DNA of 64,000 nt from positions 111,669 through 175,668 of the forward strand of contig JAIPGN010000001.1 of NCBI GenBank assembly GCA_021735685.1. The letters are read 5' to 3'. Origin of the DNA: Patescibacteria group bacterium. Lineage in GTDB: Bacteria; Patescibacteriota; Patescibacteriia; UBA2591; UBA6264. Below, one piece after another: positions 4,319 to 53,830 of this stretch (positions are counted from its first letter, which is position 1; each line of letters starts with the position of its first letter). The notes under the pieces are model-generated. The model saw only the letters and a list, made by a program, of their open reading frames with translations. It was not told where the DNA came from and searched no databases. A program made the position numbers and the translations under genes.

Positions 4319-5326
4319 ATGTTTGTTAAAAAAATAGGAATAGATTTGGGAACCACTAATGTTTTGGTTTATCTTCCTCATAGGGGGATTGTAACTAATG
4401 AACCTTCGGTGGTGGCTATTTCTACCACTGATAAAAGTATTTTGGCGGTTGGTGATGATGCTAAGGAAATGATTGGGCGAACTCCTGACACCATTATTGC
4501 TAAAAGACCTTTAAAGGATGGAGTGATTGCTGATTACAAAACCACGGAGGCGATGTTGCGTTATTTCGTGGGCAAGGCAGTGGGCCGTTTTAGTTTTTTC
4601 CGTCCAGAAGTTATGGTGGCAGTACCCGGCGGAATTACTTCTACTGAAAAAAGGGCGGTAGTGGATGCAACTATGCGAGCAGGGGCAAAAGCAGCTTACA
4701 TTATTAAAGAACCAATTGCGGCGGCTATTGGCTCTAACATTCCTATCGGTTCAGCTTCGGGTCATATGATTATTGATATTGGCGGAGGCACTACTGAGGC
4801 GGCAGTTATTTCTTTGGGTGGGATTGTAGCTTGCACTTCGGTCCGCGTGGCTGGCAATAAATTGGATGCTGCCATTGCTAGCTTTGTTCGTAAAAAATAT
4901 AATTTAGCGGTGGGTGAGAGGACGGCCGAGCAAATTAAAATTAAGATAGGTTCAGCCCTGCCTCTAGAGAAAAAGATGAAATTAGATATTAAGGGCCGAG
5001 ATATGATTTTAGGTTTGCCTCGTATTATTACAATTAACTCTGATGACATTACCGAAGCGATTCAAGATGAGTTAGACGCTATTATTACTGCAGTTAAATC
5101 AGTGCTTTATGACACCCCTCCTGAGTTGTCTGCAGATGTGATGAGTAAAGGGATGGTCCTTTCTGGAGGAAGTTCTTTGCTTAAAAATTTAGACAAGTTA
5201 TTAACTGATGCTATTGGAGTGCCAGCTTATTTATCTGAAGAACCCCTTTTATCCGTAGCTAAAGGAACAGGCATGGCTTTGGACAATTTGGAATCATATA
5301 AAAGGAGCGTATCTTCTAATAAATAG
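4319..5326 (+). CDS. mreB: rod shape-determining protein MreB (actin homologue), copy 1
   Basis: 335 aa. Carries the phosphate-1 motif 'IGIDLGTTNVLVY', the 'DIGGGTTE' motif and the adenosine motif 'SGGSSLLKNLDKLL'. Confidence 0.9.
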   Translation: MFVKKIGIDLGTTNVLVYLPHRGIVTNEPSVVAISTTDKSILAVGDDAKEMIGRTPDTIIAKRPLKDGVIADYKTTEAMLRYFVGKAVGRFSFFRPEVMVAVPGGITSTEKRAVVDATMRAGAKAAYIIKEPIAAAIGSNIPIGSASGHMIIDIGGGTTEAAVISLGGIVACTSVRVAGNKLDAAIASFVRKKYNLAVGERTAEQIKIKIGSALPLEKKMKLDIKGRDMILGLPRIITINSDDITEAIQDELDAIITAVKSVLYDTPPELSADVMSKGMVLSGGSSLLKNLDKLLTDAIGVPAYLSEEPLLSVAKGTGMALDNLESYKRSVSSNK

Positions 5327-5391: not shown

Positions 5392-6507
5392 ATGATTATT
5401 GGCATTGACGCCTCTCGGGCCAACCAAGAACAAAAAACTGGCGTGGAATGGTATTCTTATTATTTAATTGAAGAATTAAAAAAAATACCATTAAAATCAC
5501 AGGAGAAGATTATTTTATATTCTCCGCACAAGTTAAAGGGAAAATTGGGTGTTTTGCCTTCGGGCTGGGAGGAAAAAGTTTTATCATGGCCAATTGTTTA
5601 TTTATGGACACAGATTAGATTAGCCGGGGAAATGTTATTTCGCTCCCCGGATCTTTTATTTGTCCCCTCTTCAGGCCTTCCTTTTTTGCTCCCCAGGAAA
5701 AAAGTGATTACTGTTCATGATTTAGGTTTTAAACACTTTCCTGAATCTTATACTCTTTTTCAAAGATTTTATTATTTTTTGGTTCACTTTTGGTCAATTC
5801 GAATTGCAAGTCGAATCATTGTTCCTTCGGAATTCACTAAAAAAGATATTCAAAAGGAGTTTGGAATAGCAAAGGAAAAGATTAAAGTAATTCCTCTTGG
5901 CTTTCAACAACAAAATCGTAAAAATTTAAAAAAAGAGGTTATTAGTCTTTTGAACAAGTATGAGTTAAATTCGCCATTTTTTCTTTACGTAGGACGATTA
6001 GAAAAGAAGAAGAATATAGTTGGTTTAATTGAAGCTTATCAACGTTTTAGAAGGTCAACTTCGAAATCATTAATTCCAAAATTAATTTTGGTGGGGCGAC
6101 CTGGTTATGGTTATTCAGATATTCAAAAAAGCATTTTTTCCACTCCAGGAGTTAAAGAGTTGGGCTATCTGTCCTCTAAAGAATTATCTTTAATTTATTC
6201 TCAAGCTTTGGCTTTTGTTTTCCCTTCTTTTTATGAAGGTTTTGGAATCCCCTTACTGGAGGCTATGGCTAATGGTTGTCCAATTTTGTCTAGTTGGGCT
6301 GGTTCTCTGCCAGAAATAGGAAGAGATGCCGTTCTTTATTGTGATCCATTAAACTTAGATAGTATAACTCAGGGAATGTTAACTCTTTTTGAGAAGGAAG
6401 AGAAAAGGAAGGCTTTAATTAAAAAAGGTTATCAAAGAGTACAGTTTTTTTCTTGGAAAAAATGTGCCCAGGCCACAAAAAAAGTTTTATTTTCTTCATT
6501 AAAATGA
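5392..6507 (+). CDS. glycosyltransferase family 4 (GT-B fold, retaining)
   Basis: 371 aa. The C-terminal GT4 signature 'FPSFYEGFGIPLLEAMANGCPIL' (E-x7-E) is present. TGA stop at 6505-6507. Confidence 0.8.
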   Translation: MIIGIDASRANQEQKTGVEWYSYYLIEELKKIPLKSQEKIILYSPHKLKGKLGVLPSGWEEKVLSWPIVYLWTQIRLAGEMLFRSPDLLFVPSSGLPFLLPRKKVITVHDLGFKHFPESYTLFQRFYYFLVHFWSIRIASRIIVPSEFTKKDIQKEFGIAKEKIKVIPLGFQQQNRKNLKKEVISLLNKYELNSPFFLYVGRLEKKKNIVGLIEAYQRFRRSTSKSLIPKLILVGRPGYGYSDIQKSIFSTPGVKELGYLSSKELSLIYSQALAFVFPSFYEGFGIPLLEAMANGCPILSSWAGSLPEIGRDAVLYCDPLNLDSITQGMLTLFEKEEKRKALIKKGYQRVQFFSWKKCAQATKKVLFSSLK

Positions 6508-7469
6508 AAATTATTGGTCATCAAAAAATTATAGATTATTTGGTTAAAAGTGTTCATCGTAAAAAGCTGGCTCAATCTTATTTGTTTTGTGGACCAGCAC
6601 AGGTAGGAAAAAAAATGGTAGCCAAATATTTTGCAGCTACGATTCTTTGTGAACAAGAAGAGAATCCTTGTCTTCAGTGTGATTCTTGTTTACGAGTGGC
6701 TCAAGACGAACACCCAGATATTTATTATGTTCAGCCAGAAGAAAATAAGGAAATTATTGGCATTAATCAGATTAGATCTATGAAAAATGCCGCTATCTTT
6801 AGCCCCTTTTCTGGTTCGGCTAAAATTGTTATAATAGAGAAGGCTGATAATTTAAGTAAGGCGGCGGCAAATTCTTTGTTAAAAATTTTAGAAGATCCTC
6901 CTGATCGTGTTTTTATAATTCTTTTAGCTCAAGGATTGGCTAATTTACCTTCTACCATTTATTCTCGATGTCAAGTTTTAAGACTTAAGCCCCCCCATTC
7001 TTCAGAGATAATTTCTTTTTTGCAAGAAGAATTCAATTTTGATCAAGAAAAAGCTGAAAAAATAACAAGTTTATCTTGGGGTTTGCCGGGGCGGGCGATT
7101 AATTTAGTCAAAAATAAAGAGTTGGGTCTAAAAAAACAAGAAGAATTAATTTCTAAATTTTTATTTTTTCTAACCGAGAGAGACAATTTAGAAAATAAAA
7201 TAAAATTATCAGATTTGATATTAAAATCAGAGAGTCAAGAATCTTTGTTTGTTTTACTGCAAGTAGTTCGTGACTTTTATTTGATTAAAGCTGGATTAAA
7301 TTCGGCCACAGCCCTGAAAGAAGAGCAAAAAAAAAAATTAGCTCAAATGTATTCTTTTCTTGAGTTACGTCTTTTCGCCCAAGAGATTATGCGGGTACGA
7401 AATCAGTTAACTGCGCCTTTGAATAAAAAATTATTAATTGAAAATTTGTTTTTTAATAACTTTACTTAA
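6504..7469 (+). CDS. holB: DNA polymerase III delta-prime subunit (clamp loader)
   Basis: 'MKIIGHQKIIDYL...SYLFCGPAQVGKK' is an AAA+ Walker A with the characteristic G-H-Q/E start. A zinc module 'CLQCDSC' is present. The start was chosen at the internal ATG forming an ATGA overlap with the GT4 stop. The ORF track's longer 5' extension overlaps the upstream gene. Confidence 0.7.
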   Translation: MKIIGHQKIIDYLVKSVHRKKLAQSYLFCGPAQVGKKMVAKYFAATILCEQEENPCLQCDSCLRVAQDEHPDIYYVQPEENKEIIGINQIRSMKNAAIFSPFSGSAKIVIIEKADNLSKAAANSLLKILEDPPDRVFIILLAQGLANLPSTIYSRCQVLRLKPPHSSEIISFLQEEFNFDQEKAEKITSLSWGLPGRAINLVKNKELGLKKQEELISKFLFFLTERDNLENKIKLSDLILKSESQESLFVLLQVVRDFYLIKAGLNSATALKEEQKKKLAQMYSFLELRLFAQEIMRVRNQLTAPLNKKLLIENLFFNNFT

Positions 7470-11601: not shown

Positions 11602-12633
11602 ATGTTAAAAAAAATTTTTTCTAAAGATATTGCTTTAGATTTAGGGACAACCAATGTTAGGGTTTATGTTCGCGGTAAGGGTTTGGTGGTTAATGAGCCT
11701 ACAGTGGTCGCCATTAATACGAGAAATGATCAAATCGTAGCTATTGGGAGCAATGCTCTTAGGATGTTGGGAAAGGCGCCGAAACATATTTCCGTGATTC
11801 AGCCCTTGGTTAATGGTGTTATTTCTGATTTTGAGGTTACGGAAAAGATGTTGAGGATGATTTTTAATAAAGTTCACCATGATAGCTTTACTTTAATTCC
11901 TCGCCCACGAGTAGTAGCTTCTGTCCCTTTAGATGTTACAGAAGTAGAAAAGAAATCTTTAGAGGATGTTATTTTACAGGCTGGAGCGCGCACGGTTTTT
12001 TTGGTTGAACGGCCAGTGGCATCAGCCATTGGAGCGCGTTTGCCAGTTCAAGAATCAATTGGAAATTTAATTGTAGAACTGGGTGGAGGAATTTCAGAGA
12101 TAGCAGTTATTTCTCTTAATGGAATCGTTGCTCACAAATCATTAAAAGTGGGTGGAGAGTTATTGAGTAAAAATATTATTGATTATGTTCGGGAAAACTT
12201 TGGAGTGTTATTAGGCCAGCAAACCGCAGAAGCCGTGAAAATTAAGATTGGTTCGGCGGCTTCGGTTAGTAAATCACAGGAAATGAAAATTAAGGGTCGA
12301 GATTTAGTCAGTGGATTACCGCGCGAGGTGGTTATTACCGATACTCAAGTTCGAGAAGCGGTTCTGCCTAGTTTAAAAATTATCACGGAGGGAGTTCGAG
12401 ATACAATTGAATCTACACCGCCAGAATTGGTTTCTGATATTTATGAGAGAGGAGTCATTCTTTCTGGAGGAGCCTCTCTTTTAAAGGGATTAGATAAATT
12501 AATTAGAAAAAAAATTAATATTTCAGTTTATTTAGTTGATGATCCTTCCACGGCGGTTATCAGAGGAATGGGCTTAATTTTAGAAGATTTTGATAATTTA
12601 AAAAGCGTTATCATTCCTTCGGCTCGAGATTAA
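11602..12633 (+). CDS. MreB/Mbl-like actin homologue, copy 2
   Basis: 343 aa. Carries 'LDLGTTNVRVYV', 'ELGGGISE' and 'SGGASLLKGLDKLI'. It is a divergent paralogue of the copy at 4319. Confidence 0.85.
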   Translation: MLKKIFSKDIALDLGTTNVRVYVRGKGLVVNEPTVVAINTRNDQIVAIGSNALRMLGKAPKHISVIQPLVNGVISDFEVTEKMLRMIFNKVHHDSFTLIPRPRVVASVPLDVTEVEKKSLEDVILQAGARTVFLVERPVASAIGARLPVQESIGNLIVELGGGISEIAVISLNGIVAHKSLKVGGELLSKNIIDYVRENFGVLLGQQTAEAVKIKIGSAASVSKSQEMKIKGRDLVSGLPREVVITDTQVREAVLPSLKIITEGVRDTIESTPPELVSDIYERGVILSGGASLLKGLDKLIRKKINISVYLVDDPSTAVIRGMGLILEDFDNLKSVIIPSARD

Positions 12634-19118: not shown

Positions 19119-19327
19119 ATTATTGTTGATTTATTACTAATTGATTTTATTATATCAGCTTTAATGGTCTTGGCAAGAGAAAGTTAAAGGGGTTGTTAAT
19201 ATTTAAGATTTGTAATATGATGTTAAGGGGATTATTCACAATTTATTCACAATTTATTAACCTTATTTTTCTTATTTTTTCAAAGAGATTGTGTTATCAT
19301 GAAAATTGAAACTAAGTAATATTTTTT
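19119..19327. promoter_or_regulatory. putative chromosomal replication origin (oriC) / dnaA promoter region with tandem DnaA boxes
   Basis: An AT-rich non-coding gap lies between the divergent rpmF(-) and dnaA(+). Two direct TTATTCACA boxes at 19233-19241 and 19243-19251 are each one mismatch from the TTATCCACA consensus. A third degenerate copy TTATTAACC follows, then an AT-rich tract. Confidence 0.5.
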
Positions 19328-20698
19328 ATGGACAAAAAGCAAATCTGGAATATAGTTTTGTCGGAATTAGAGCTTTTGATTTCTAAAGCTAATTTTAAGA
19401 CATGGTTGCAAAATACTTATATTTTGAGTTTGGAGAATGAGGGAAAAAAAGTAATAGTTGGAGTTCCTAATAGTTTTGCTAAAAGTTGGTTAGAAAATAA
19501 GTACCACAAGTATATTTTGGAAGCTTTGCGGGGAGCCACAGAGGAAAAGGTTAAAGAGGTGGTTTATAAAATAAATGCAGATTCAAATAAAAAAGGACAT
19601 TCAAGTAACAATATTGCTCCTCGTCCCCAAAAGAAAAAAACAGAAGAAAGCGAAGGGGCTTCAGCCAATAATCATGGTTTAAATCCTCGTTACACTTTTG
19701 AGAATTTTGTAGTAGGTGAGGGCTCAGAGTTGGCTTATGCTGCTTGTCAAGCGGTTTGCGATAATGCTGGCAAAAAATATAATCCTCTTTTTATTTACGG
19801 AGGTGTGGGATTAGGCAAAACTCATCTTTTGCAGGCTGTGGGCCATTCAATTTTAAAGAAAAGTCCTAAAAGTAAATTATTTTACACTAATGCTGAAAAA
19901 TTTACTAATGATTTTATTACTGCCATTGGAAACGGCACTATGGAAAAATTTAAAAAATTTTATCGCCAATTAAAAGTTTTTTTAATTGATGATATTCAAT
20001 TTATGACCGGCAAGGATCGAACCCAAGAAGAATTTTTTCATACTTTTAATGCTCTTTATCAAGAAGAAAGGCAAATTATTATTGCTTCTGATCGCCCCCC
20101 TAAAGAAATCCCTGCCCTCCAAGATCGTCTGACATCTCGTTTAACTTGGGGTTTAATCGCTGATATTGCTCCGCCAGGCTTGGAAACTAGAATTGCTATC
20201 TTAAAAGCTAAATGCGAAGAGAAAGAATATCCTTTAAGTGAAGAGATTCTGGGGTATTTGGCTACCCATATTCAAAGTAATGTGCGTGAATTGGAAGGAG
20301 CTCTAAATAAATTAATTGCTTATCAGGAATTTCATCAACAGCAAGAGCTGGATTTGGAAACAGTTAAGAATATATTAAGCACGCTTAATAATAGTAAAAA
20401 TAAAACAGGGTTTGTTCACCCTCGGCAATTAATGGAAGTGGTGGCTAATTTTTATGGATTAGAACTATCAGATATGATTAGTTCTTCACGAAAAAAAGAG
20501 TTTGTTCTACCTCGGCAAATAACTATGTATTTAATGAGAGAAGAGAATAAGGCTTCTTTTCCTTTTATCGGCAAAGAACTAGGGAAAAGAGATCATACTA
20601 CAGCTATGCATGCTTGTGAAAAAATTAAAAAAGCTATTGACAAAGATCCTAAATTAAAAAAAGAAATAGATTTAATTAAAGAAAGGTTATATAATTAA
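19328..20698 (+). CDS. dnaA: chromosomal replication initiator protein DnaA
   Basis: 456 aa. Shows the AAA+ Walker A 'GGVGLGKTHLLQA', sensor motifs and the C-terminal DnaA-box-binding HTH 'KELGKRDHTTAMHA'. Confidence 0.95.
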   Translation: MDKKQIWNIVLSELELLISKANFKTWLQNTYILSLENEGKKVIVGVPNSFAKSWLENKYHKYILEALRGATEEKVKEVVYKINADSNKKGHSSNNIAPRPQKKKTEESEGASANNHGLNPRYTFENFVVGEGSELAYAACQAVCDNAGKKYNPLFIYGGVGLGKTHLLQAVGHSILKKSPKSKLFYTNAEKFTNDFITAIGNGTMEKFKKFYRQLKVFLIDDIQFMTGKDRTQEEFFHTFNALYQEERQIIIASDRPPKEIPALQDRLTSRLTWGLIADIAPPGLETRIAILKAKCEEKEYPLSEEILGYLATHIQSNVRELEGALNKLIAYQEFHQQQELDLETVKNILSTLNNSKNKTGFVHPRQLMEVVANFYGLELSDMISSSRKKEFVLPRQITMYLMREENKASFPFIGKELGKRDHTTAMHACEKIKKAIDKDPKLKKEIDLIKERLYN

Positions 20699-20708
20699 TA
20701 AAAGTTTT

Positions 20709-21548
20709 TTGGTTTTTATGTACGTAATTAAGGCTTCTGGAGAAAAAGTTAAATTTAATTCTTCTAAAATTAGAAAGACTTGCTTGCGAGCTGGCGCTCC
20801 CAAAGATGTTTGTCGGAAGGTTGAGCAATTGGTAAAAGATCAGGTCCGAGAAGGAATGTCCACTCAAGAAATTTTAAAAATTACTTTGGAACATTTAGAA
20901 AAATATAGCCCTTTGACTTCAATTCGTTATGGTCTTAAAAGAGCTATTTTTGGTTTAGGTCCCACTGGGTTTGTTTTTGAAAAATTTGTAGCTTATCTTT
21001 TTCAAGCTTATGGCTTTAGCGCTTATTGTCCTCCCATCCTAAAGGGTCGTTGTGTTGAACAAGAGGTGGATGTAATTGCGATTAAAAAAAGGAAAGGGTC
21101 TCAAAAAAAATCTCAACAAAAATATTTAATCGAGTGCAAGTATCGTAATACTGCGGGCTTGAAGGTGGATCTTCAAGATGCTCTTTGTCTCTGGGCTCGA
21201 TTTAAGGATTTAGAGAAGGAAAATTTTACTCAACCTTGGTTGGTTTCTAATGCTAAATTTACTAAAGCCGCTATTCAATATGGACGTTGTCAGGGAATTA
21301 AACTATTGGGTTGGAGATATCCTTCTCGCCAAAGCCTCAATGCTTTAATTGAGAAAAAAAAGCTTTATCCGATTACAATTTTGAAAGAAGTGAGCGGGAA
21401 ATTGGCTCAAAATTTTTTTAATCAAGACGTTATTATACTTAGTCATCTGTGCTCTTCTCATATAAATAATTTGTCTTCACGAGTGGGAATTAGTTCAGGC
21501 AAAATGAAGAGAATAGTCGAAGCGGCTCAATTGATTTTAAAAAGCTAA
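20709..21548 (+). CDS. ATP-cone domain fused to Mrr-like restriction-endonuclease (PD-(D/E)xK) domain protein
   Basis: The N-terminal ~90 aa 'VIKASGEKVKFNSSKIRKTCLRAG...' follow the ATP-cone pattern (as in NrdR/NrdD). The next region 'GPTGFVFEKFVAYLFQAYGF...EVDVIAIKK...YLIECKYR...VSNAKFTKAAIQYG' matches the Mrr catalytic-core D-x(n)-E-C-K topology. Confidence 0.55.
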   Translation: MVFMYVIKASGEKVKFNSSKIRKTCLRAGAPKDVCRKVEQLVKDQVREGMSTQEILKITLEHLEKYSPLTSIRYGLKRAIFGLGPTGFVFEKFVAYLFQAYGFSAYCPPILKGRCVEQEVDVIAIKKRKGSQKKSQQKYLIECKYRNTAGLKVDLQDALCLWARFKDLEKENFTQPWLVSNAKFTKAAIQYGRCQGIKLLGWRYPSRQSLNALIEKKKLYPITILKEVSGKLAQNFFNQDVIILSHLCSSHINNLSSRVGISSGKMKRIVEAAQLILKS

Positions 21549-21577: not shown

Positions 21578-23275
21578 ATGTTAAATATTGATGATTTATT
21601 AAAATATGATCAAAATTCTAATTTCGATGACAGCAAGGAAAGACAATTAAAGAATAAGCTTTCCCATTTGGAAGATGAGGAAATAGAAGAAAAAGTAAGC
21701 ACTCAAGCCCGTTCAATGGGTTTGCCTTATATGAATTTAACTGATTTTCCTGTTTCTGAAGAAGCCTTGCGGATGATTCCCAAGGAAGGGGCTTTGAATT
21801 ATCAGGCAATTTGTTTTTATCGTACTGATCGTTTAGCTAAAATTGGCTCTCTGGATCCACAAAATAATTCTTTTAGTGAGTTTTGTCGCCATTTTGAAGC
21901 GGCTCATGATTTAAATATAGAAATCTATTTGATTTCAGCTAATAGTTTTAATGCGGTTTTGAAGAGATATGAAACTTTGCCTAAAATTAGAGAGATGGCC
22001 AAAGGAGTTGAAATCAGTGCCGAAGATTTTAAAAAATTCGAAAATAAAATTCAAAGTTTTCAAGATCTTAATCAAGAAATTCAAAAAACAGATATTTCTA
22101 ATTTGATTACTTTAGTTATTGCTAGTTCAGTTAAATCTCGAGCCTCAGATATTCATATTGAGGCCGAAGAAGACGGAATTAAACTAAGATTTAGAGTTGA
22201 CGGTATTTTGATTGATGTGGCGGAGATTGATAAGAAATTTTGGCTTCAAGTTATTTCACGGATTAAGCTTTTGTCGGGATTAAAAATTAATGTTGTGGGG
22301 CGACCGCAGGACGGAAGATTTGTTATTAAATTAGAGAAAGAAAAAATAGACGTAAGAGTTTCTTGCCTGCCCACTTCTTATGGAGAAAGTGTGGTGATGC
22401 GTCTCTTGCGTTCTTCTACTGCTGGATTAAGCTTTGAGGATTTAGGATTAAGGGGAAGAAGTTATCAGATTTTAAAAAGAGAAGTAGAGCGCCCCAATGG
22501 TATGATTATTACCACCGGTCCTACTGGATCCGGCAAAACCACTACTCTTTATGCCATTATTAATAAATTGAATGACGAGGAAACCAAAATTATTACTTTA
22601 GAGGATCCAATTGAATATCGAGTTAAGGGAGTTAATCAAAGTCAGGTTGACCAATCCAAGGATTATACTTTTGCTAATGGATTGCGCTCTATTTTACGTC
22701 AAGATCCAGACGTAGTTATGGTGGGAGAAATTAGAGATGCGGAGACAGCAAAAATTGCTATTCAGTCCGCTTTAACCGGACATATGGTTGTTTCTACTTT
22801 ACATACTAATGATGCCGCCGGAGCCTTGCCTCGTTTTCTTTCCATGGGCGTTAAGCCCTTCCTTTTAGCCCCCGCCTTAAACGCTGTTATTGGGCAAAGG
22901 TTAGTGCGTAGAATTTGCGAAAAGTGCAAAAAAGAAGTTCAATTAACTTCTGAAAAATTGGAAAGAGTTAAGGCTCTTTTGAAGGACATTCCCTCTTCAG
23001 CTGAGGTTAAGATAGATTTTAACAATTTAAAATTTTACCAAGGAGAAGGTTGTCCAGCTTGTCAGGGCTTGGGTTATCATGGACGAATTGGTATTTATGA
23101 AGTTCTGGCGGTTAATGCTGAAGTTGAAAAAGCAATTTTAGAAGGAAGTTTATCTGAATACAAGGCGCGAGAATTGAGTCAACAACAGGGAATGGTTACA
23201 ATGGTTCAAGATGGTTTATTAAAGGCTTTAGATGGCATTACTAGCATAGAGGAAGTTTTCCGAGTAGCTGAATAA
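21578..23275 (+). CDS. pilB: type IV pilus assembly ATPase PilB / GspE family
   Basis: Walker A 'TGPTGSGKTTTLYA' is present, along with Asp/His boxes, the tetracysteine motif CEKC...CPAC and an N-terminal GSPII_E_N-like domain. Confidence 0.85.
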   Translation: MLNIDDLLKYDQNSNFDDSKERQLKNKLSHLEDEEIEEKVSTQARSMGLPYMNLTDFPVSEEALRMIPKEGALNYQAICFYRTDRLAKIGSLDPQNNSFSEFCRHFEAAHDLNIEIYLISANSFNAVLKRYETLPKIREMAKGVEISAEDFKKFENKIQSFQDLNQEIQKTDISNLITLVIASSVKSRASDIHIEAEEDGIKLRFRVDGILIDVAEIDKKFWLQVISRIKLLSGLKINVVGRPQDGRFVIKLEKEKIDVRVSCLPTSYGESVVMRLLRSSTAGLSFEDLGLRGRSYQILKREVERPNGMIITTGPTGSGKTTTLYAIINKLNDEETKIITLEDPIEYRVKGVNQSQVDQSKDYTFANGLRSILRQDPDVVMVGEIRDAETAKIAIQSALTGHMVVSTLHTNDAAGALPRFLSMGVKPFLLAPALNAVIGQRLVRRICEKCKKEVQLTSEKLERVKALLKDIPSSAEVKIDFNNLKFYQGEGCPACQGLGYHGRIGIYEVLAVNAEVEKAILEGSLSEYKARELSQQQGMVTMVQDGLLKALDGITSIEEVFRVAE

Positions 23276-23360
23276 ATAGATTATTTTTGTAAAATAAAAA
23301 GTTTGGGAGTTTAAATCCCAAACTTTTTTATTTTAAGTTCTTGGAAATAGAAATATTTTT

Positions 23361-32388: not shown

Positions 32389-34008
32389 ATGACAAAATAT
32401 GTTTTTGTAGTCGGAGGAGTAATGTCGGGATTAGGTAAGGGAGTGGCCACTGCCTCTATGGGTCGGCTTTTACAAAGCAAAGGTTATCGTGTTTCTGCGA
32501 TCAAAATTGATCCCTACATTAATGTTGATGCTGGTACTATGAATCCCGTAGAGCACGGTGAGGTTTTTGTTACTGAAGATGGCTTAGAAACTGATCAAGA
32601 TTTGGGTAATTATGAGCGTTTTTTGAACAAGGATATTACTAGCTTAAATTACATGACCACGGGAAGTGTTTATAGTAGCGTTATTCAGAAAGAAAGAAAT
32701 CTAGAATATCAGGGTCGTTGTGTAGAGGTAATCCCTCATATTCCCAATGAAGTTATTGAGCGCATTAAAAAAGTGGGGCAAGAAACTAAATCCGATATAG
32801 TTTTGATTGAAGTTGGAGGAACTGTTGGAGAATACCAAAATGCTATTTTTTTAGAAGCTGCTCGGATGATGAAGTTAGAAAATCCAGGCCATGTTGTTTT
32901 CGTAATGCTTAGTTATTTGCCCGTGCCCCCTAAAATTGGAGAAATGAAAACTAAACCGACTCAATATGCGGTTCGTACTTTAAATTCAGCTGGCTTGCAA
33001 CCGGATTTTATTTTAGCACGTTCGGTTGTCCCTTTAGATGCGGTGCGCAAAGAAAAAATTTCTACTTTTTGTAATATTTCTCCGGAAAATATTATTTCAG
33101 CGCCAGATGTGGACTCAATTTATAAAGTTCCGCTTAATTTTGCTAAAGATAATTTAGGAGAAAAGATTTTAAAAAAATTGAAATTACCAGCGCGTGCTAG
33201 TGATTTGAAAAAATGGCGGCGTATTGTTAAGACCGCTGCGCAAGCTTCTAAGAAAGTGAATGTTGGTTTAGTTGGTAAATATTTTGCTACTGGTAAATTT
33301 ACTTTAACCGATTCTTATATCTCGGTAATCGAAGCGGTTCGTCATGCTGCTTGGGCCAATAATTGTCGCCCTGTTTTTCATTGGATTAATAGCCAACAGA
33401 TTGAAAAACAAGGAGTTAAGGCTCTCAAAGATTTAGATGGTGTAATCATTACTCAGGGCTGGGGCAAAAGAGGCTCGGAAGGAATGATTAAAGCCATTCA
33501 ATTTTGTCGCGAGAATAAAAAGCCCTGTTTTGGACTTTGTTATGGACTACAAATGGCTGTTATTGAGTTTGCTCGTCATGTTTGCGGGATTAAGGGAGCC
33601 ACTTCAGAAGAAATTGACCCGCAAGCCAAGGATCAAGTTATTCATATTATGCCTGACCAAAAAGATATGGTTGCCCGTAAGCGATATGGAGGAACTATTA
33701 GACTAGGAGCTTATCCTTGTTGTTTACAGCCCAAAAGCCGGGCTGCTAGCATTTATCGACAAAAAAAGATTTTTGAAAGACATCGTCATCGTTATGAATT
33801 TAATAATCAATATCGAAAAGATTTCGAAAAAAAAGGTTTAGTGGTTAGTGGAGTTTCTCCAGATAATAAATTGGTAGAAATCGTTGAAATTTCTGATCAT
33901 CCCTTTTTTCTGGCTACTCAATTTCATCCTGAGTACAAATCACGGCTTTTGGCTCCTCACCCTTTATTTAAAGCTTTTGTTAAAGCCTCTTTATTAACCA
34001 AGAAATAA
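32389..34008 (+). CDS. pyrG: CTP synthase
   Basis: 'MTKYVFVVGGVMSGLGKG' N-terminus, and the GATase domain with 'GLCYGLQ' and 'H..RYE'. Confidence 0.9.
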   Translation: MTKYVFVVGGVMSGLGKGVATASMGRLLQSKGYRVSAIKIDPYINVDAGTMNPVEHGEVFVTEDGLETDQDLGNYERFLNKDITSLNYMTTGSVYSSVIQKERNLEYQGRCVEVIPHIPNEVIERIKKVGQETKSDIVLIEVGGTVGEYQNAIFLEAARMMKLENPGHVVFVMLSYLPVPPKIGEMKTKPTQYAVRTLNSAGLQPDFILARSVVPLDAVRKEKISTFCNISPENIISAPDVDSIYKVPLNFAKDNLGEKILKKLKLPARASDLKKWRRIVKTAAQASKKVNVGLVGKYFATGKFTLTDSYISVIEAVRHAAWANNCRPVFHWINSQQIEKQGVKALKDLDGVIITQGWGKRGSEGMIKAIQFCRENKKPCFGLCYGLQMAVIEFARHVCGIKGATSEEIDPQAKDQVIHIMPDQKDMVARKRYGGTIRLGAYPCCLQPKSRAASIYRQKKIFERHRHRYEFNNQYRKDFEKKGLVVSGVSPDNKLVEIVEISDHPFFLATQFHPEYKSRLLAPHPLFKAFVKASLLTKK

Positions 34009-34324: not shown

Positions 34325-37360
<3,036 letters not shown>

Positions 37361-37409
37361 CTAATTTATCATTTAGTTCATAATTTATTTTTCCTAAGGA
37401 CAATAGAAT

Positions 37410-37518
37410 TCTGGTGATTCTGCCGGGGAGGAAACACCTGTTCCCATCCCGAACACAGAAGTTAAGCTCCCTAGGGCCGATGGTAGTCTTTAAGGCGAGA
37501 GTAGGTAATCGCCAGAAT
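37410..37518 (+). rRNA. rrf: 5S ribosomal RNA
   Basis: 'TCTGGTGATTCTGCCGGGGAGGAAACACCTGTTCCCATCCCGAACACAGAAGTTAAGC...GAGAGTAGGTAATCGCCAGAA' shows the conserved 5S blocks. Helix I ends pair. Confidence 0.85.
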
Positions 37519-37699: not shown

Positions 37700-38938
37700 A
37701 TGCAATATATAGCTGACTTTCATATTCATTCTAAGTATTCACGAGCTACCTCGCCCCAAATGGACTTGGAGCATTTAGATTATGAGGCTGCTCGCAAAGG
37801 AATCCAGGTTTTGGGAACCGGGGATTTTACTCATCCTGCTTGGTTTAAAGAATTAAAAGAGAAATTACATCTAGTGTCCGAAGGTATTTATCAAGTTAAA
37901 AACAGTAAATATTTGACTAATTTCATTTTGACTTCGGAATTATCTTGTATCTATAAAAAGAATGGAAAATGTCGCCGAATTCATTTGGTTTTTTTGGCTC
38001 CCAGCTTGGAGGTGGTTGAAAAGATTAACAAAAAATTAGACCAGAGATTTAATATAAGGTCAGACGGTCGTCCTATTTTGGGTGTTGATGCCGAAGAGTT
38101 AGCTAAGCTCATTTTTGATATTTCTCCGAAATGTTTTTTAATTTGCGCCCATATTTGGACTCCCTGGTTTTCTTTGTTTGGCGCTAAATCGGGATTTGAT
38201 ACAGTAGAAGAATGCTTTGGAGAAATGAGTTCCAAAGTTTATGCTATGGAAACGGGTTTAAGTTCTGACCCGGCCATGAATTGGCGCTTGTCAGCTTTGG
38301 ATAAATACACCCTACTTAGTAATTCTGATGCTCATAGTCCTCGCAATTTAGGCAGAGAAGCTAACGTTTTTGATTTAAAAAAATTAACTTATTCTAATCT
38401 AATTAATGCCATTAAAACCAAAAAAGGCCTAGAATATACTATTGAATTTTATCCAGAAGAAGGAAAATATCATTTAGATGGTCATCGAGCCTGTGACATT
38501 AAAATGACCCCTCAGGAATCAATAAAGAACAAAAATATTTGTCCGCAATGTCATCGTCCTCTGACTATTGGCGTCTTGCATCGTGTTAATGAACTAGCTG
38601 ATCGTCCCGAGGGTTTTATTCCTTCGAAAGCCATCCCATTCAAGAGTATTATCCCTTTGCCTGAATTGATTTCCGAAATAAAAGGAGTGGGCCCCAAATC
38701 TAAAACAGTTCAAAAAGAATATGATTCTTTAATTTCTAAGGGCCAAAGTGAATTTAATATTTTACTTCATCTCTCTTTTTCTCAATTAAAAGAAATTACT
38801 TCTTTAGAATTAGCTCGGGCCATTATTAAGGCGAGAGAAGGAAAGGTGATTAAAGAAGCTGGTTATGATGGGGTTTATGGAAAGATAAAAGTGTCCGAGT
38901 CAGAAGATGGTAAAATTTCTCAAAAAAAACTTTTTTAA
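37700..38938 (+). CDS. PHP-domain endonuclease, EndoQ-like (TIGR00375-like) with C4 zinc ribbon
   Basis: The N-terminus 'ADFHIHSKYSRATSP' is a PHP metal-binding motif, with further His/Asp PHP motifs ('HIWTPWFS', 'NSDAHSP'). A Cys4 ribbon 'CPQCHRPLT' is present, and the ~410 aa size matches archaeal/bacterial EndoQ. Confidence 0.55.
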   Translation: MQYIADFHIHSKYSRATSPQMDLEHLDYEAARKGIQVLGTGDFTHPAWFKELKEKLHLVSEGIYQVKNSKYLTNFILTSELSCIYKKNGKCRRIHLVFLAPSLEVVEKINKKLDQRFNIRSDGRPILGVDAEELAKLIFDISPKCFLICAHIWTPWFSLFGAKSGFDTVEECFGEMSSKVYAMETGLSSDPAMNWRLSALDKYTLLSNSDAHSPRNLGREANVFDLKKLTYSNLINAIKTKKGLEYTIEFYPEEGKYHLDGHRACDIKMTPQESIKNKNICPQCHRPLTIGVLHRVNELADRPEGFIPSKAIPFKSIIPLPELISEIKGVGPKSKTVQKEYDSLISKGQSEFNILLHLSFSQLKEITSLELARAIIKAREGKVIKEAGYDGVYGKIKVSESEDGKISQKKLF

Positions 38939-41594: not shown

Positions 41595-42830
41595 ATGACC
41601 CAACAGCAAGCACTTAAAATCTTGAAATCTGGAGTAAATGTTTTTTTAACAGGTTCGGCGGGAACAGGAAAAACCTTTTTGTTAAATCAATTCATTTCAT
41701 ATCTAAGGAAATCTAATAAGAAAATTGGTATAACGGCCTCTACAGGAATTGCTGCTACTCATCTTGAGGGCCGAACAATTCATTCTTGGTCGGGGATTGG
41801 CATAAAAAAAGAAATGGATGAAAAATCTTTAAAGCACATCGCCAAAAATAAGAGAATCAACAAAAGAATTAAAGAGACACAGACTTTGATTATTGATGAA
41901 ATATCAATGCTAGATGCTAATCGATTGACCTTAGTTGATCGAGTTTGCAAAAAAATTAAAGACCCCTTCCTTCCTTTCGGGGGTCTGCAAATAATAATGT
42001 GCGGTGATTTTTTTCAGCTTCCTCCAGTAAGCCAGGGAGAAAAGTCGCAATTTGCTTATGAGTCACCAGTTTGGCAAAATTCAAATATTAGGGTTTGCTA
42101 TCTTAGTAAGCAGTTTCGCCAAAATGATTCCGCATTTACTGACATTTTGAATAAAATTAGAGAAAATAAGGCTGGTTTAGAAGAGTTAAATTTATTAAAG
42201 ACACGGTTAAACCAATCTATAAATCTTTCTGTAAGACCCACTCAGCTATACACGCACAATGTTAAAGTTGACATAATCAACGATTTGGAATTATCCAGAA
42301 TTCCCAAAAAAGAAATGACTTATTATATGATCGGTCAAGGAGAAAAGCGCTTAGTTGATCTTTTGAAAAAGAATTGTTTAGCTCCCGAAGAATTGAAATT
42401 GAAAATTGGAGCGATGGTAATGTTTGTTAAGAATAATTTTGAGGCCGGTTATGTTAATGGCACCCTTGGTAAGGTGGTTGATTATGATGATGATAAATGT
42501 CCGATTATTGAGACAACTTCTGGTCAACACATTATAGCTTCTCCTGTTACTTGGAATATGGAAGAAAATAATGAGGTTGTTGCGAGCGTTAAGCAGGTTC
42601 CTCTACGTTTAGCTTGGGCTATTACTGTTCACAAGAGTCAAGGTATGAGCCTAGATGCTGCGGAAATTGATTTGTCAAAATCATTTGAACACGGCATGGG
42701 CTATGTGGCCTTGTCTAGAATAAGAAGATTAGATAATGTTAGATTGATGGGTATTAATCAAATAGCTTTACGAGTTAGCCCAGAAGTTGTAGAGAAAGAT
42801 AAAGAATTCAAAAAATTATCAGAAATATAA
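41595..42830 (+). CDS. Pif1/RecD-like SF1 5'-3' DNA helicase (compact, 411 aa)
   Basis: Walker A 'VFLTGSAGTGKTFLL', 'LIIDEISML' (Walker B) and 'GDFFQLPPV' (motif III typical of Pif1/RecD) are present, along with a C-terminal 'VHKSQGMSLD' motif V/VI region. Confidence 0.75.
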   Translation: MTQQQALKILKSGVNVFLTGSAGTGKTFLLNQFISYLRKSNKKIGITASTGIAATHLEGRTIHSWSGIGIKKEMDEKSLKHIAKNKRINKRIKETQTLIIDEISMLDANRLTLVDRVCKKIKDPFLPFGGLQIIMCGDFFQLPPVSQGEKSQFAYESPVWQNSNIRVCYLSKQFRQNDSAFTDILNKIRENKAGLEELNLLKTRLNQSINLSVRPTQLYTHNVKVDIINDLELSRIPKKEMTYYMIGQGEKRLVDLLKKNCLAPEELKLKIGAMVMFVKNNFEAGYVNGTLGKVVDYDDDKCPIIETTSGQHIIASPVTWNMEENNEVVASVKQVPLRLAWAITVHKSQGMSLDAAEIDLSKSFEHGMGYVALSRIRRLDNVRLMGINQIALRVSPEVVEKDKEFKKLSEI

Positions 42831-51739: not shown

Positions 51740-53830
51740 ATGTCTTCAAACATCTCTAAAATCAAGAAAAGGAATAACAAGATCGTTGATTTTAATAAAA
51801 CTAAAATTGTGGAAGCTATTTATAAGGCCATTCTCGCAGTAAAAGGAGAAGATGGTAAAGATTCTAAAAAATTAGCCGATCAAGTAGTTAAAATTTTAGG
51901 AAAGCGTTTCTCTAATAAAATTCCCCACGTAGAAGATGTGCAAGACATAGTAGAGCAAGTTTTAATTCATGCCGACTTGGCTGATGTGGCTCGCGCTTAT
52001 ATTCTTTATCGAGAACAAAGACGTCAGGCTAGAGAAATTATTAATGAGAGCGACAAAAGCGTTGATTTAGTAGAAAAATATTTGTCGGAAGGAGATTGGG
52101 AGATTAAGGAAAACGCCAATATGACTTATTCTTTACAAGGATTGAATAATTATATCGCGGGTCTGGCTAGTAAAAAATATTGGTTAAATAAAATTTATCC
52201 TCAAGAAATCAGAAAGGCGGTTGAGGATGGTAATTTTCATATTCATGATTTGAGCTCTTTGAGCACATATTGCATGGGTTGGGATTTGCAAGATTTTTTG
52301 CTCAAGGGATTTACTGGAGTAGCGGGTAAAATATCATCTGGGCCGGCCAAACATTTTCGTTCTGCCCTGGGGCAAGTGGTAAACTTTTTCTACACCTTGC
52401 AAGGAGAGGCAGCTGGAGCGGAAGCCTTTTCTTCCTTTGACACTTATTTGGCTCCTTTTATTGCTTACGACAAGCTTAATTATCGACAAGTGAAGCAGGC
52501 CTTACAAGAATTTTTGTTTAATTGTAATGTTCCTACTCGAGTTGGCTTCCAAACTCCCTTTACTAATATTACTTTAGACCTCAAAGTCCCTCGCAATATG
52601 TCTAAACAACCGGTTATTATTGGAGGAGAGCTTCAAAAAAAGACTTATGGCGAGTTTCAAAAAGAAATGAACATGCTTAATCGTGCCTTTTATGAATTAA
52701 TTATGGAGGGTGATTCCAGCCAAAGAGTTTTTACTTTTCCTATTCCTACAATTAATATTACCAAGGATTTCGATTGGGATAATCCCGATTATGAGCCGAT
52801 GTGGGAAGCGACCGCTAAATATGGCATTAACTATTTTTCTAATTTTATTAATTCGGACTTAGACCCCGAAGATATCAGAAGTATGTGTTGCCGCTTGCGT
52901 CTTAATAATAAAGAGCTTCATCACCGTGGCGGCGGGCTTTTTGGAAGCGCTCCTTTGACTGGGAGCGTGGGGGTGGTCACGATTAATCTTCCTCAGATTG
53001 GATATTTAACTCAAACTAAAAAAGAATTTTTAGATCGTTTGGGACTTTTAATGGATTTAGCCAGAGAGAGTTTGGAGATCAAAAGAAAGGTTTTAGAAAA
53101 TTTTATGCAAAAAGGGCTTTATCCTTATTCTAAATTTTATTTATCCAGTATTAAAAAAATGCGAGGAACTTATTTGGCTAATCATTTTTCAACAATTGGC
53201 TTGGTGGGGATGAATGAAGCTTTATTAAACTTTAAAGGAGAAGACATTACTTCATCCAAGGGCCAAAAATTAGCTTTAGAGATTTTAGATTATATGCGTC
53301 AGCGTTTATTAAAATATCAAGAGAAGACTGGGCATATTTATAATTTAGAAGCCACCCCTGCCGAAGGAACCAGTTATCGTTTGGCCAAAATAGACAAAAA
53401 GAAATACCCAGACATTATTACTGCTGGCAGTGGGACATTTTACTATACTAATTCCAGTCAATTGCCGGTTGATTATTCGGGAGGTTTGTTTAATGCCCTG
53501 GAATTGCAAGATAAAATACAAATTAAATACACAGGAGGAACAGTTTTTCACGCCTTTTTGGGAGAGAAAATTTTTGATTCAGCAGTAGTTAAGAGTTTAA
53601 TTAAAAAAGTTTTTACTAAATTTCGTTTACCTTACTTTACCCTAAGCCCGACTTTTAGCATTTGTCCAGAACATGGTTATTTAAGCGGTGAACATTTTAC
53701 TTGCCCTCATTGTCAGGCTCGAGCGGAAGTTTATTCTCGTATTGTTGGTTATTTGCGGCCAGTGCAGCAATGGAACAAAGGTAAGCGAGAAGAGTTTGGA
53801 GAAAGAGAGACTTTTGATCCTAAATTATGA
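51740..53830 (+). CDS. nrdD: anaerobic ribonucleoside-triphosphate reductase (class III RNR)
   Basis: Shows an N-terminal ATP-cone. The C-terminus has the zinc ribbon 'CPEHGYLSGEHFTCPHC' and the glycyl-radical motif 'RIVGYLRPVQQWNKGKREE'. Confidence 0.9.
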   Translation: MSSNISKIKKRNNKIVDFNKTKIVEAIYKAILAVKGEDGKDSKKLADQVVKILGKRFSNKIPHVEDVQDIVEQVLIHADLADVARAYILYREQRRQAREIINESDKSVDLVEKYLSEGDWEIKENANMTYSLQGLNNYIAGLASKKYWLNKIYPQEIRKAVEDGNFHIHDLSSLSTYCMGWDLQDFLLKGFTGVAGKISSGPAKHFRSALGQVVNFFYTLQGEAAGAEAFSSFDTYLAPFIAYDKLNYRQVKQALQEFLFNCNVPTRVGFQTPFTNITLDLKVPRNMSKQPVIIGGELQKKTYGEFQKEMNMLNRAFYELIMEGDSSQRVFTFPIPTINITKDFDWDNPDYEPMWEATAKYGINYFSNFINSDLDPEDIRSMCCRLRLNNKELHHRGGGLFGSAPLTGSVGVVTINLPQIGYLTQTKKEFLDRLGLLMDLARESLEIKRKVLENFMQKGLYPYSKFYLSSIKKMRGTYLANHFSTIGLVGMNEALLNFKGEDITSSKGQKLALEILDYMRQRLLKYQEKTGHIYNLEATPAEGTSYRLAKIDKKKYPDIITAGSGTFYYTNSSQLPVDYSGGLFNALELQDKIQIKYTGGTVFHAFLGEKIFDSAVVKSLIKKVFTKFRLPYFTLSPTFSICPEHGYLSGEHFTCPHCQARAEVYSRIVGYLRPVQQWNKGKREEFGERETFDPKL

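Follow-up and report, generated by a model that had tools for sequence, protein, structure and literature searches.

ATP-cones are understood almost wholly through the ribonucleotide reductases (RNRs) and NrdR. In NrdR the cone is fused to a DNA-interacting module, and according to a preprint (bioRxiv 10.1101/2024.05.27.596032) the ATP/dATP load of this cone sets the oligomeric state of the protein and thereby its DNA binding. AF1548 from Archaeoglobus fulgidus (PDB code: 1Y88) combines a nuclease (PF04471) with a C-terminal helix-hairpin-helix (HhH) domain (PF22357); its family was grouped with Mrr_cat, COG1787 and 1Y88 in a survey of PD-(D/E)xK nucleases (PMC3424549), and D38, E51 and K53 were predicted to be its catalytic residues (PMC1821046, PMC1874628). 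The present work concerns X, the gene directly after dnaA in a 64-kb stretch of DNA (64,000 nucleotides, the window) from a Patescibacteria group bacterium; positions are those of the window and residues are numbered in the 276-residue product. X encodes an ATP-cone, a Mrr-like PD-(D/E)xK nuclease and an AF1548-like HhH tail, an architecture and family assignment of which we are very confident. The AF1548 family is catalogued, has a crystal structure (1Y88) and is functionally uncharacterised; X is an ordinary member of it.

The open reading frame of X ends at 21548 of the forward strand and may start with TTG at 20709 or with ATG at 20718. The product of 20718-21545 (276 residues) is identical to GenBank MCF7906790.1, deposited as "restriction endonuclease", and all aligned homologs share the N-terminus MY[VI]IKASG; the real start is for these reasons almost certainly ATG 20718, the TTG being an in-frame alternative further upstream, and the gene spans 20718-21548. 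The gap between the dnaA stop codon and X is therefore 19 nt and not 10 nt, as had been given in an earlier reading of this DNA (the original prediction), which had the order of dnaA, X and pilB right. The fusion of an ATP-cone to a Mrr-like nuclease recognized in that reading is confirmed: the peptides it quoted (VIKASGEKVKFNSSKIRKTCLRAG, EVDVIAIKK and YLIECKYR) are all present, the predicted structure and the catalytic residues agree, and both domains match Pfam above the gathering cutoff (GA), the ATP-cone (PF03477) at residues 4-64 with 31.7 bits (GA 25.8) and Mrr_cat (PF04471) at residues 87-200 with 32.4 bits (GA 21). Its two-domain description was incomplete, as it overlooked a third domain, AF1548-like_C (PF22357), which matches residues 220-277 with 26.4 bits (GA 23.9). 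Neither the Mrr_N nor the SRA family was found in X by Pfam at E<=1, and a Pfam search for the CARF family was likewise negative. Among PDB sequences, X matches 1Y88 by phmmer with E=3.6e-34 over residues 89-273; the family profile matches 1Y88 with E=6e-63 and also finds the cone of Aquifex aeolicus R1 at the sequence level (E=0.0016).

All parts of X lie on the forward strand. The ATP-cone (residues 1-78; 20718-20951) consists of a β-hairpin plus helices, with K5, S7, G8, K17, T49, Y71 and K74 conserved. The junction motif L80-G81-P82-x-G84-F85-x-F87-E88 (20952-20981), apparent from the homolog alignment, connects the cone's last helix directly to the first helix of the nuclease, which carries E88. 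The Mrr-like nuclease core (residues about 89-205; 20982-21332) contains E116, D118, E139, C140 and K141 and, between the D118 strand and the E139-x-K strand, an enlarged Lys/Ser-rich loop, DVIAIKKRKGSQKKSQQKYLIE (residues 118-139; 21069-21134), recognized by comparison of loop lengths. An invariant LYPIT motif precedes the AF1548-like C-terminal HhH domain (residues about 206-276; 21333-21545).

An AlphaFold2 model of X, built on a 20-sequence alignment, reached a pLDDT of 92.6 and a pTM of 0.87, with the pLDDT dropping to 78 at the enlarged loop. Parts of the model match NrdR/RNR cones, the AF1548 crystal structure 1Y88 and HhH domains of the RAD51/NusA type. The cone is predicted to fold as an N-terminal β-hairpin capping a helical bundle and, as modelled, can be superposed on ligand-bound NrdR (1.8 Å, 79 columns, 23% identity), while the predicted nuclease adopts the restriction-endonuclease-like α/β core fold. 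Residue conservation was counted in 120 homologs of X. E88, E116, D118, E139 and K141 are invariant (120/120), so that the first-helix Glu and the D...(D/E)xK triad are intact in X, and the catalytic residues align with D38/E51/K53 of 1Y88.

The cone is the best conserved part of the protein, with a mean majority-residue frequency of 0.655, compared to 0.616 for the nuclease and 0.532 for the C-terminal tail. A cone under stronger purifying selection than the nuclease speaks against a relic in decay. K5 is found in 116, K17 in 118 and K74 in all of the 120 homologs, and T49 in 110 (the other 10 having Ser); S7, G8 and Y71 are also nearly or fully invariant. In canonical cones the nucleotide is contacted by the Lys-Arg pair of VxKRDG, the Lys of the KI motif, a Thr of helix 3 and a basic residue of the last helix. 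K5, K17, T49 and K74 probably correspond to such phosphate- or ribose-contacting positions of RNR and NrdR structures, the equivalence of positions being drawn from a hidden Markov model (HMM) alignment to the Aquifex R1 and from the E. coli NrdA numbering. The LGPxGFxFE junction is likewise nearly or fully invariant (G81, P82, G84, F87 and E88 in 120/120; L80 and F85 in 117/120), and is a plausible route for allosteric coupling from the cone to the nuclease.

With HMMER, 1.84 billion cluster representatives (clusters at 50% identity) were scanned exhaustively; the family has 592 clusters with E<=1e-30, or 1,071 with E<=1e-10. Nearly all of the top 150 of the 592 clusters are 260-300 residues long and cover the full profile, and in these the architecture is fixed. 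At least 591 species carry the family, as judged from GTDB contigs with one genome per species. Among the matches listed, the bacterial carriers include Patescibacteria, Bacteroidota (with the cultured Gramella, Tenacibaculum and Terrimonas), Chlamydiota and Nitrospirae, and the archaeal ones Hadarchaeota, Aenigmatarchaeota, Woesearchaeota, Nanoarchaeota, Undinarchaeota, Nitrososphaerales and Archaeoglobi; Patescibacteria and DPANN-type archaea often carry it. Between bacterial and archaeal members the identity is 35-45%.

The nuclease and the C-terminal HhH domain of AF1548 are homologous to those of X, but the crystallised chain is without the ATP-cone that X and most of the family carry, and X, unlike AF1548, has the lineage-specific enlarged loop between the catalytic strands. 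In the 1Y88 chain (199 residues) the first position corresponds to about residue 68 of X, in the last cone helix. The start likewise lies past the cone in four members of about 200 residues, and two Archaeoglobus loci from metagenome-assembled genomes (L032, L066) encode full-length versions with the cone. AF1548 may be either a gene model cut short at its N-terminus or, like the few members of about 200 residues, genuinely without a cone.

NrdR, in which an ATP-cone is joined to a DNA-interacting module as in X, would by analogy be the best mechanistic precedent for X. NrdR differs in having an N-terminal zinc ribbon and no catalytic domain, and the cone of X is N-terminal and has no Arg where canonical cones carry one behind the first Lys; against the NrdR model (cutoff 124.65) X reaches 16 bits. 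The type III CRISPR effectors Can2, Card1, VC1899 and Cdn1 combine, as X would, a sensor with a PD-(D/E)xK nuclease; the likeness is in the nuclease core only and is a functional analogy. Their CARF sensor binds cyclic oligoadenylates and they are encoded in CRISPR loci, whereas X has an ATP-cone and no CRISPR or defence context was found for it. Mrr, MspJI and AspBHI (Type IV) carry a modified-base reader (the Mrr winged helix or an SRA-like domain), in place of which X has the cone and the HhH tail, and both the conservation and the genomic context of X are unlike those of such defence genes. NucS/EndoMS, the mismatch endonuclease of archaea and actinobacteria, has its own N-terminal dimerisation/DNA-binding domain and a PCNA/β-clamp-binding tail, is without a cone and HhH domain, and no sequence-level relationship to X was detected.

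Since both domains are borne out by profile, by structure and by the conservation of the catalytic residues, X can fairly and plausibly be read as a nucleotide-sensing nuclease. We propose that X is an adenine-nucleotide-gated DNase serving DNA turnover or nucleotide salvage, and put the probability of this full statement, role included, at about 0.45. By analogy with the RNRs and NrdR, the ATP-cone would act as an adenine-nucleotide sensor, in which ATP or dATP occupancy would alter the oligomeric state or the geometry of the LGPxGFxFE junction, which leads into the E88 helix; either change would switch DNA cleavage on or off. The C-terminal HhH domain would bind DNA without sequence specificity, and the central Mrr-like nuclease, with its intact active site, would cut it, DNA being the presumed substrate. 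The physiological role would be DNA breakdown that is gated by nucleotide status and serves nucleic-acid turnover or nucleotide salvage, exerted by a solitary chromosomal gene.

This role is proposed because the catabolic operons in which the family is found and its frequency in Patescibacteria and DPANN-type archaea fit it. The sole cross-phylum association of the family is with the genes downstream of it in an operon, the first of them encoding a β-CASP/metallo-β-lactamase (MBL) nuclease, which is paired with X in 13 of 80 species-level loci, in most of them directly downstream of X. In the operon X is followed by the MBL/β-CASP gene, a "thymidine phosphorylase family protein" and a ribose-phosphate pyrophosphokinase (PRPP synthase), an arrangement found in RefSeq annotation on the Pontibacter actiniarum plasmid NZ_CP021236 (L089:1972-6597; Bacteroidota) and on the Criblamydia sequanensis plasmid NZ_LK031773 (L090:2137-14886; Chlamydiota), in the latter flanked by P-type ATPase, phosphoketolase, glycogen phosphorylase and acetate kinase genes. 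The same set recurs in loci L049 and L084 and partly in L047, and the flavobacterial loci have tandem universal stress proteins upstream as an addition. The phosphorylase is of the archaeal type, near AMP phosphorylase (TIGR02645 at 589 bits, above the cutoff; TIGR03327 at 480 bits, below the cutoff). The operon and its flanks look like a module of nucleic-acid and storage-polymer catabolism or salvage in Bacteroidota and Chlamydiota. CPR bacteria (those of the Candidate Phyla Radiation) have no de novo nucleotide synthesis and were proposed to use type IV pili and the Com proteins to scavenge DNA (PMC6744442, PMC10633639).

Several observations weigh against this proposal. The salvage-type operon occurs, in full or nearly so, in about 5 of 82 loci, all of them from Bacteroidota and Chlamydiota; none of the CPR and archaeal loci examined has it, nor has the window. 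In Southlakia, the one CPR bacterium with tractable genetics, the com genes for DNA uptake make no fitness contribution (PMC10633639), which weakens the premise of DNA scavenging. The nearest structural neighbours of the nuclease core include the modification-dependent restriction enzymes AspBHI and MspJI and the repair nuclease NucS, i.e. restriction as well as repair enzymes, and the fold alone therefore cannot tell these roles apart. As to the cone, canonical cones have Arg right after the first Lys (VxKRDG), where 109 of 120 members have Ala, and a direct BLASTP comparison with the cone of the NrdD encoded in the window gave insignificant similarity; the HMM of the family N-terminus aligns weakly to the latter (5.9 bits), so that the cone assignment rests on Pfam and structure instead. 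In the searchable literature there is no functional or biochemical study of any AF1548-family member, just fold-classification mentions of 1Y88. An RNR-evolution review mentioning a "restriction endonuclease" was dismissed as family literature, the mention being merely the title of a reference.

The original prediction saw in X a possible restriction- or defence-type effector. In its strongest form X would be a solitary defence nuclease (Type IV-like or abortive-infection), whose cone would sense a phage-induced ATP/dATP shift and unleash non-specific DNA cleavage. The Pfam match to Mrr_cat, the resemblance of the core to AspBHI and MspJI as well as to the cyclic-oligoadenylate-gated Can2, Card1 and Cdn1, and the name "restriction endonuclease" given to X in databases speak for it, as do the sole PADLOC match of X, to the terminal nuclease domain of ZorD (positions 952-1065 of 1071; 25 bits, E=9e-7), and the wide, patchy spread over bacteria and archaea, which suggests horizontal transfer. 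The genomic context does not bear this out. Neighbours were compared by BLAST clustering of 1,695 neighbour open reading frames and by a Pfam scan of the nearest genes (69 upstream and 59 downstream) in 74 loci. Immediate neighbours are very heterogeneous (70 Pfam families upstream, 58 downstream), no DNA methyltransferase, defence or replication family is among the 25 listed immediate-neighbour Pfam families, and no recurrent DNA methyltransferase is among the 25 largest BLAST neighbour clusters. A restriction-modification partner was accordingly rejected, the neighbours in the window being dnaA and pilB. Phages and viral contigs are virtually without the family and plasmids nearly so: it occurs in none of 50,697 phage records, in one partial match of 41 residues among the 2.9 million viral contigs of IMG/VR and in 2 of 72,556 plasmids, counts on which a mobile or viral origin was rejected. 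The very high conservation, with dozens of invariant residues and 35-45% identity between bacteria and archaea, the stable residence of X in a core-gene operon of one CPR lineage, down to 55% DnaA identity, and the lack of a modified-base reader (SRA or the Mrr N-terminal winged helix) in X also count against a defence role, which we consider unlikely. A structure-specific repair or recombination nuclease, similar to NucS/EndoMS or Hjc and tuned to the dNTP/ATP state, would equally account for the nuclease core, but the likeness to NucS and Hjc is limited to the common PD-(D/E)xK core, the sequence kinship being with Mrr_cat/AF1548; repair and recombination genes are not recurrent neighbours, and the recurrent partners suggest catabolism instead. 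This role appears distinctly unlikely to us. The cone, on the other hand, might have lost nucleotide binding and have no more than a structural or oligomerisation role in a nuclease that is constitutive. The Arg-to-Ala replacement described above, the modest score of a Pfam cone match that covers positions 1-68 of 88, the missing precomputed Pfam cone match in many close relatives of X and the existence of cone-less members of about 200 residues, AF1548 as crystallised among them, are consistent with such a loss. Against it stand the cone being the most conserved domain, the near or full invariance of K5, K17, T49 and K74, presumably ligand-contacting, and the superposition of the modelled cone fold on ligand-bound NrdR. 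An E-to-V replacement at cone position 11 in the lineage of the window was considered as a sign of lost ligand binding and dropped, as the genuine cone of the window NrdD also has Val there and the substitution is not diagnostic. We attach little weight to a non-binding cone.

A nuclease linked to replication or to the origin and coupled to DnaA, e.g. in oriC processing or in tying initiation to the dNTP pool, was the other reading of the original prediction, and parts of the locus speak for it. X follows dnaA after 19 nt with no strong hairpin between them, so that co-transcription is likely, two tandem DnaA-box-like sites lie upstream of dnaA, and ATP-cones otherwise regulate dNTP supply. 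Linkage was surveyed by tblastn of the DnaA, PilB, ValS, L32, NusB, RNase III and SMC proteins of the window against 88 loci, of which 80 species-level loci were counted. All close relatives (X about 55%, DnaA 76-78% identical) retain the order rpmF-nusB-rnc-smc, dnaA-X-pilB, valS-tsaE. DnaA adjoins X in six further, more distant species loci out of the 80 (L009, L010, L011, L012, L017 and L031; DnaA 55-66% identical), with PilB after X in all six; these belong to one Patescibacteria lineage, and most of them also keep the order of ValS, L32, NusB, RNase III and SMC (L012 shows DnaA and PilB only). DnaA is in none of the fetched flanks of the other 74 loci, about 50 of them bacterial (about 19 of these labelled Patescibacteria) and about 10 whose sequence upstream of X is shorter than 1.5 kb, and archaeal carriers are without any DnaA. 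As the surrounding region is collinear in most linked loci, inheritance explains the adjacency, and a family-wide linkage to dnaA or oriC was rejected. The D118-E139 loop is 17-28 residues long and Lys/Ser-rich in 9 of 9 dnaA-linked copies, compared to 13-16 residues in 76 others, and being common to all linked copies it marks one sub-lineage. In a neighbour-joining tree of 85 family members, calculated without support values, the smallest clade with all dnaA-linked copies includes five archaeal sequences; the case for a single sub-lineage consequently rests on the loop enlargement and not on the tree. The dnaA-X-pilB order is most readily explained by one old insertion that was handed down vertically together with its neighbourhood, and not by a family-wide functional association.

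Nor does the window contain a recognizable origin at dnaA. The GC skew, (G-C)/(G+C), is 0.06-0.27 and positive in all 32 windows of 2 kb regardless of gene strand; at 1-kb resolution it is positive on both sides of dnaA, and the cumulative skew climbs monotonically with no minimum. There is therefore no skew-defined origin at dnaA, and the whole 64 kb, dnaA included, appears to lie on one replichore. DnaA-box-like 9-mers are not above chance (8 found, 7.6 expected), and a replication origin at dnaA was accordingly discarded as unsupported. A coupling of X to DnaA is largely refuted as a property of the family and we regard it as very improbable; the position next to dnaA is a peculiarity of one lineage and no clue to the function of X. 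The original prediction, which had placed X next to the origin, made a real observation, and its interpretation is partly supported. Its argument from position falls under the condition that it had itself named as refuting, a fusion with no link to dnaA/oriC in relatives. X is probably neither a restriction enzyme nor an origin-specific factor.

In the collinear lineage X diverges faster than its neighbours, at a rate comparable to NusB and SMC, the fastest core neighbours: in L002 and L006 X is 55% identical, compared to 76-78% for DnaA, 75-76% for PilB and 71-76% for ValS, and in L009-L011 it is 40-44% identical, compared to 64-66% for DnaA. Seven metagenome-assembled genomes (L009-L011, L023, L036, L041 and L071) are titled "uncultured Gammaproteobacteria bacterium". 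In L009-L011 dnaA-X-pilB-valS is collinear with the window at 64-69% protein identity, and the Gammaproteobacteria label of these records is probably wrong.

The genes dnaA, X and pilB are all on the forward strand. dnaA (19328-20698) encodes the Pfam domains DnaA_N, Bac_DnaA and Bac_DnaA_C, and X is followed, after a gap of 29 nt, by a pilB-like gene (21578-23275) for a T2SSE/type IV pilus ATPase (T2SSE, 412 bits, plus MshEN). No strong terminator-like hairpin was found between dnaA and X; the sole one within 18.8-23.5 kb (23296-23328, 13 pairs) lies past pilB, for which reason dnaA-X-pilB is probably a single transcription unit. The two tandem DnaA-box-like 9-mers are identical (TTATTCACA), start 11 bp apart (19232-19251, forward strand) and lie in the 209-bp rpmF-dnaA intergenic region, where they could serve dnaA autoregulation or as a minimal origin element. 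The original prediction was right that dnaN is missing, every open reading frame of 330-420 residues in the 64-kb window being something else or without a Pfam match, and that the NrdD of the window (51740-53827) has an ATP-cone (75 bits).

Elsewhere in the window, the 23S and 5S rRNA genes (34325-37517) have no 16S rRNA gene upstream, where a 542-residue open reading frame ends at 34008, an unlinked rRNA arrangement; the 23S match covers 3,041 nt compared to a model of 2,925 positions, and may hold a small insertion. Right after the 5S rRNA gene comes a 412-residue open reading frame (37700-38938) with no Pfam family at E<=1e-5. An IS200/IS605-type Y1 transposase gene (PF01797; 26273-26908) between tsaE and the pyruvate:ferredoxin oxidoreductase genes looks recently inserted, other genes being at the equivalent site in the relatives L002 and L006. 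Two MreB paralogs and a Pif1-family helicase (4319-5323, 11602-12630 and 41595-42827), as well as the δ′ subunit of DNA polymerase III (6453-7466), are also encoded in this bacterium with its small genome.

Southlakia epibionticum has a stand-alone ATP-cone of 95 residues, SEML1_0737, which is non-essential by Tn-seq (PMC10633639 supplement) and has a DsbD-like membrane protein encoded on one side of it and an NAD(P)/FAD oxidoreductase on the other. SEML1_0737 is not a member of the AF1548 family; Southlakia Tn-seq was thus set aside as evidence on the family, as the non-essential call for a stand-alone cone does not transfer to it. DsbA-like and thioredoxin-reductase-like genes flank the cone-nuclease in the CPR loci L059, L061, L045 and L060, which hints at a recurrent neighbourhood of cones and thiol-redox genes.

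The interest lies in the family and not in the locus, as the copy in the window adds only one more member and a gene order specific to its lineage. Hundreds of species of both prokaryotic domains carry a cone in fixed and strongly conserved fusion with an intact nuclease, with no experimental paper in the searchable literature, and the only crystal structure of the family, 1Y88, is without the cone, the presumed regulatory domain. In its widest form, which we hold to be doubtful, the proposal would add the AF1548 family to the RNRs and NrdR as the third functional class regulated by ATP-cones: a DNase following the ATP/dATP ratio, through which DNA breakdown and the deoxynucleotide pool would form a feedback loop. 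Patescibacteria and DPANN-type archaea that are nucleotide-auxotrophic would have it as a core enzyme of salvage, and in the lineage of the window the co-transcription with dnaA and the pilus ATPase gene would tie the nucleotide supply from scavenged DNA to replication initiation. The cultured carriers Gramella, Tenacibaculum, Terrimonas and Pontibacter make the family experimentally accessible. If the cone gates the nuclease, this family would couple DNA degradation to the adenine-nucleotide status, and this, if true, would matter most for the ultra-small, nucleotide-auxotrophic Patescibacteria and DPANN-type archaea and for the starvation physiology of Bacteroidota.

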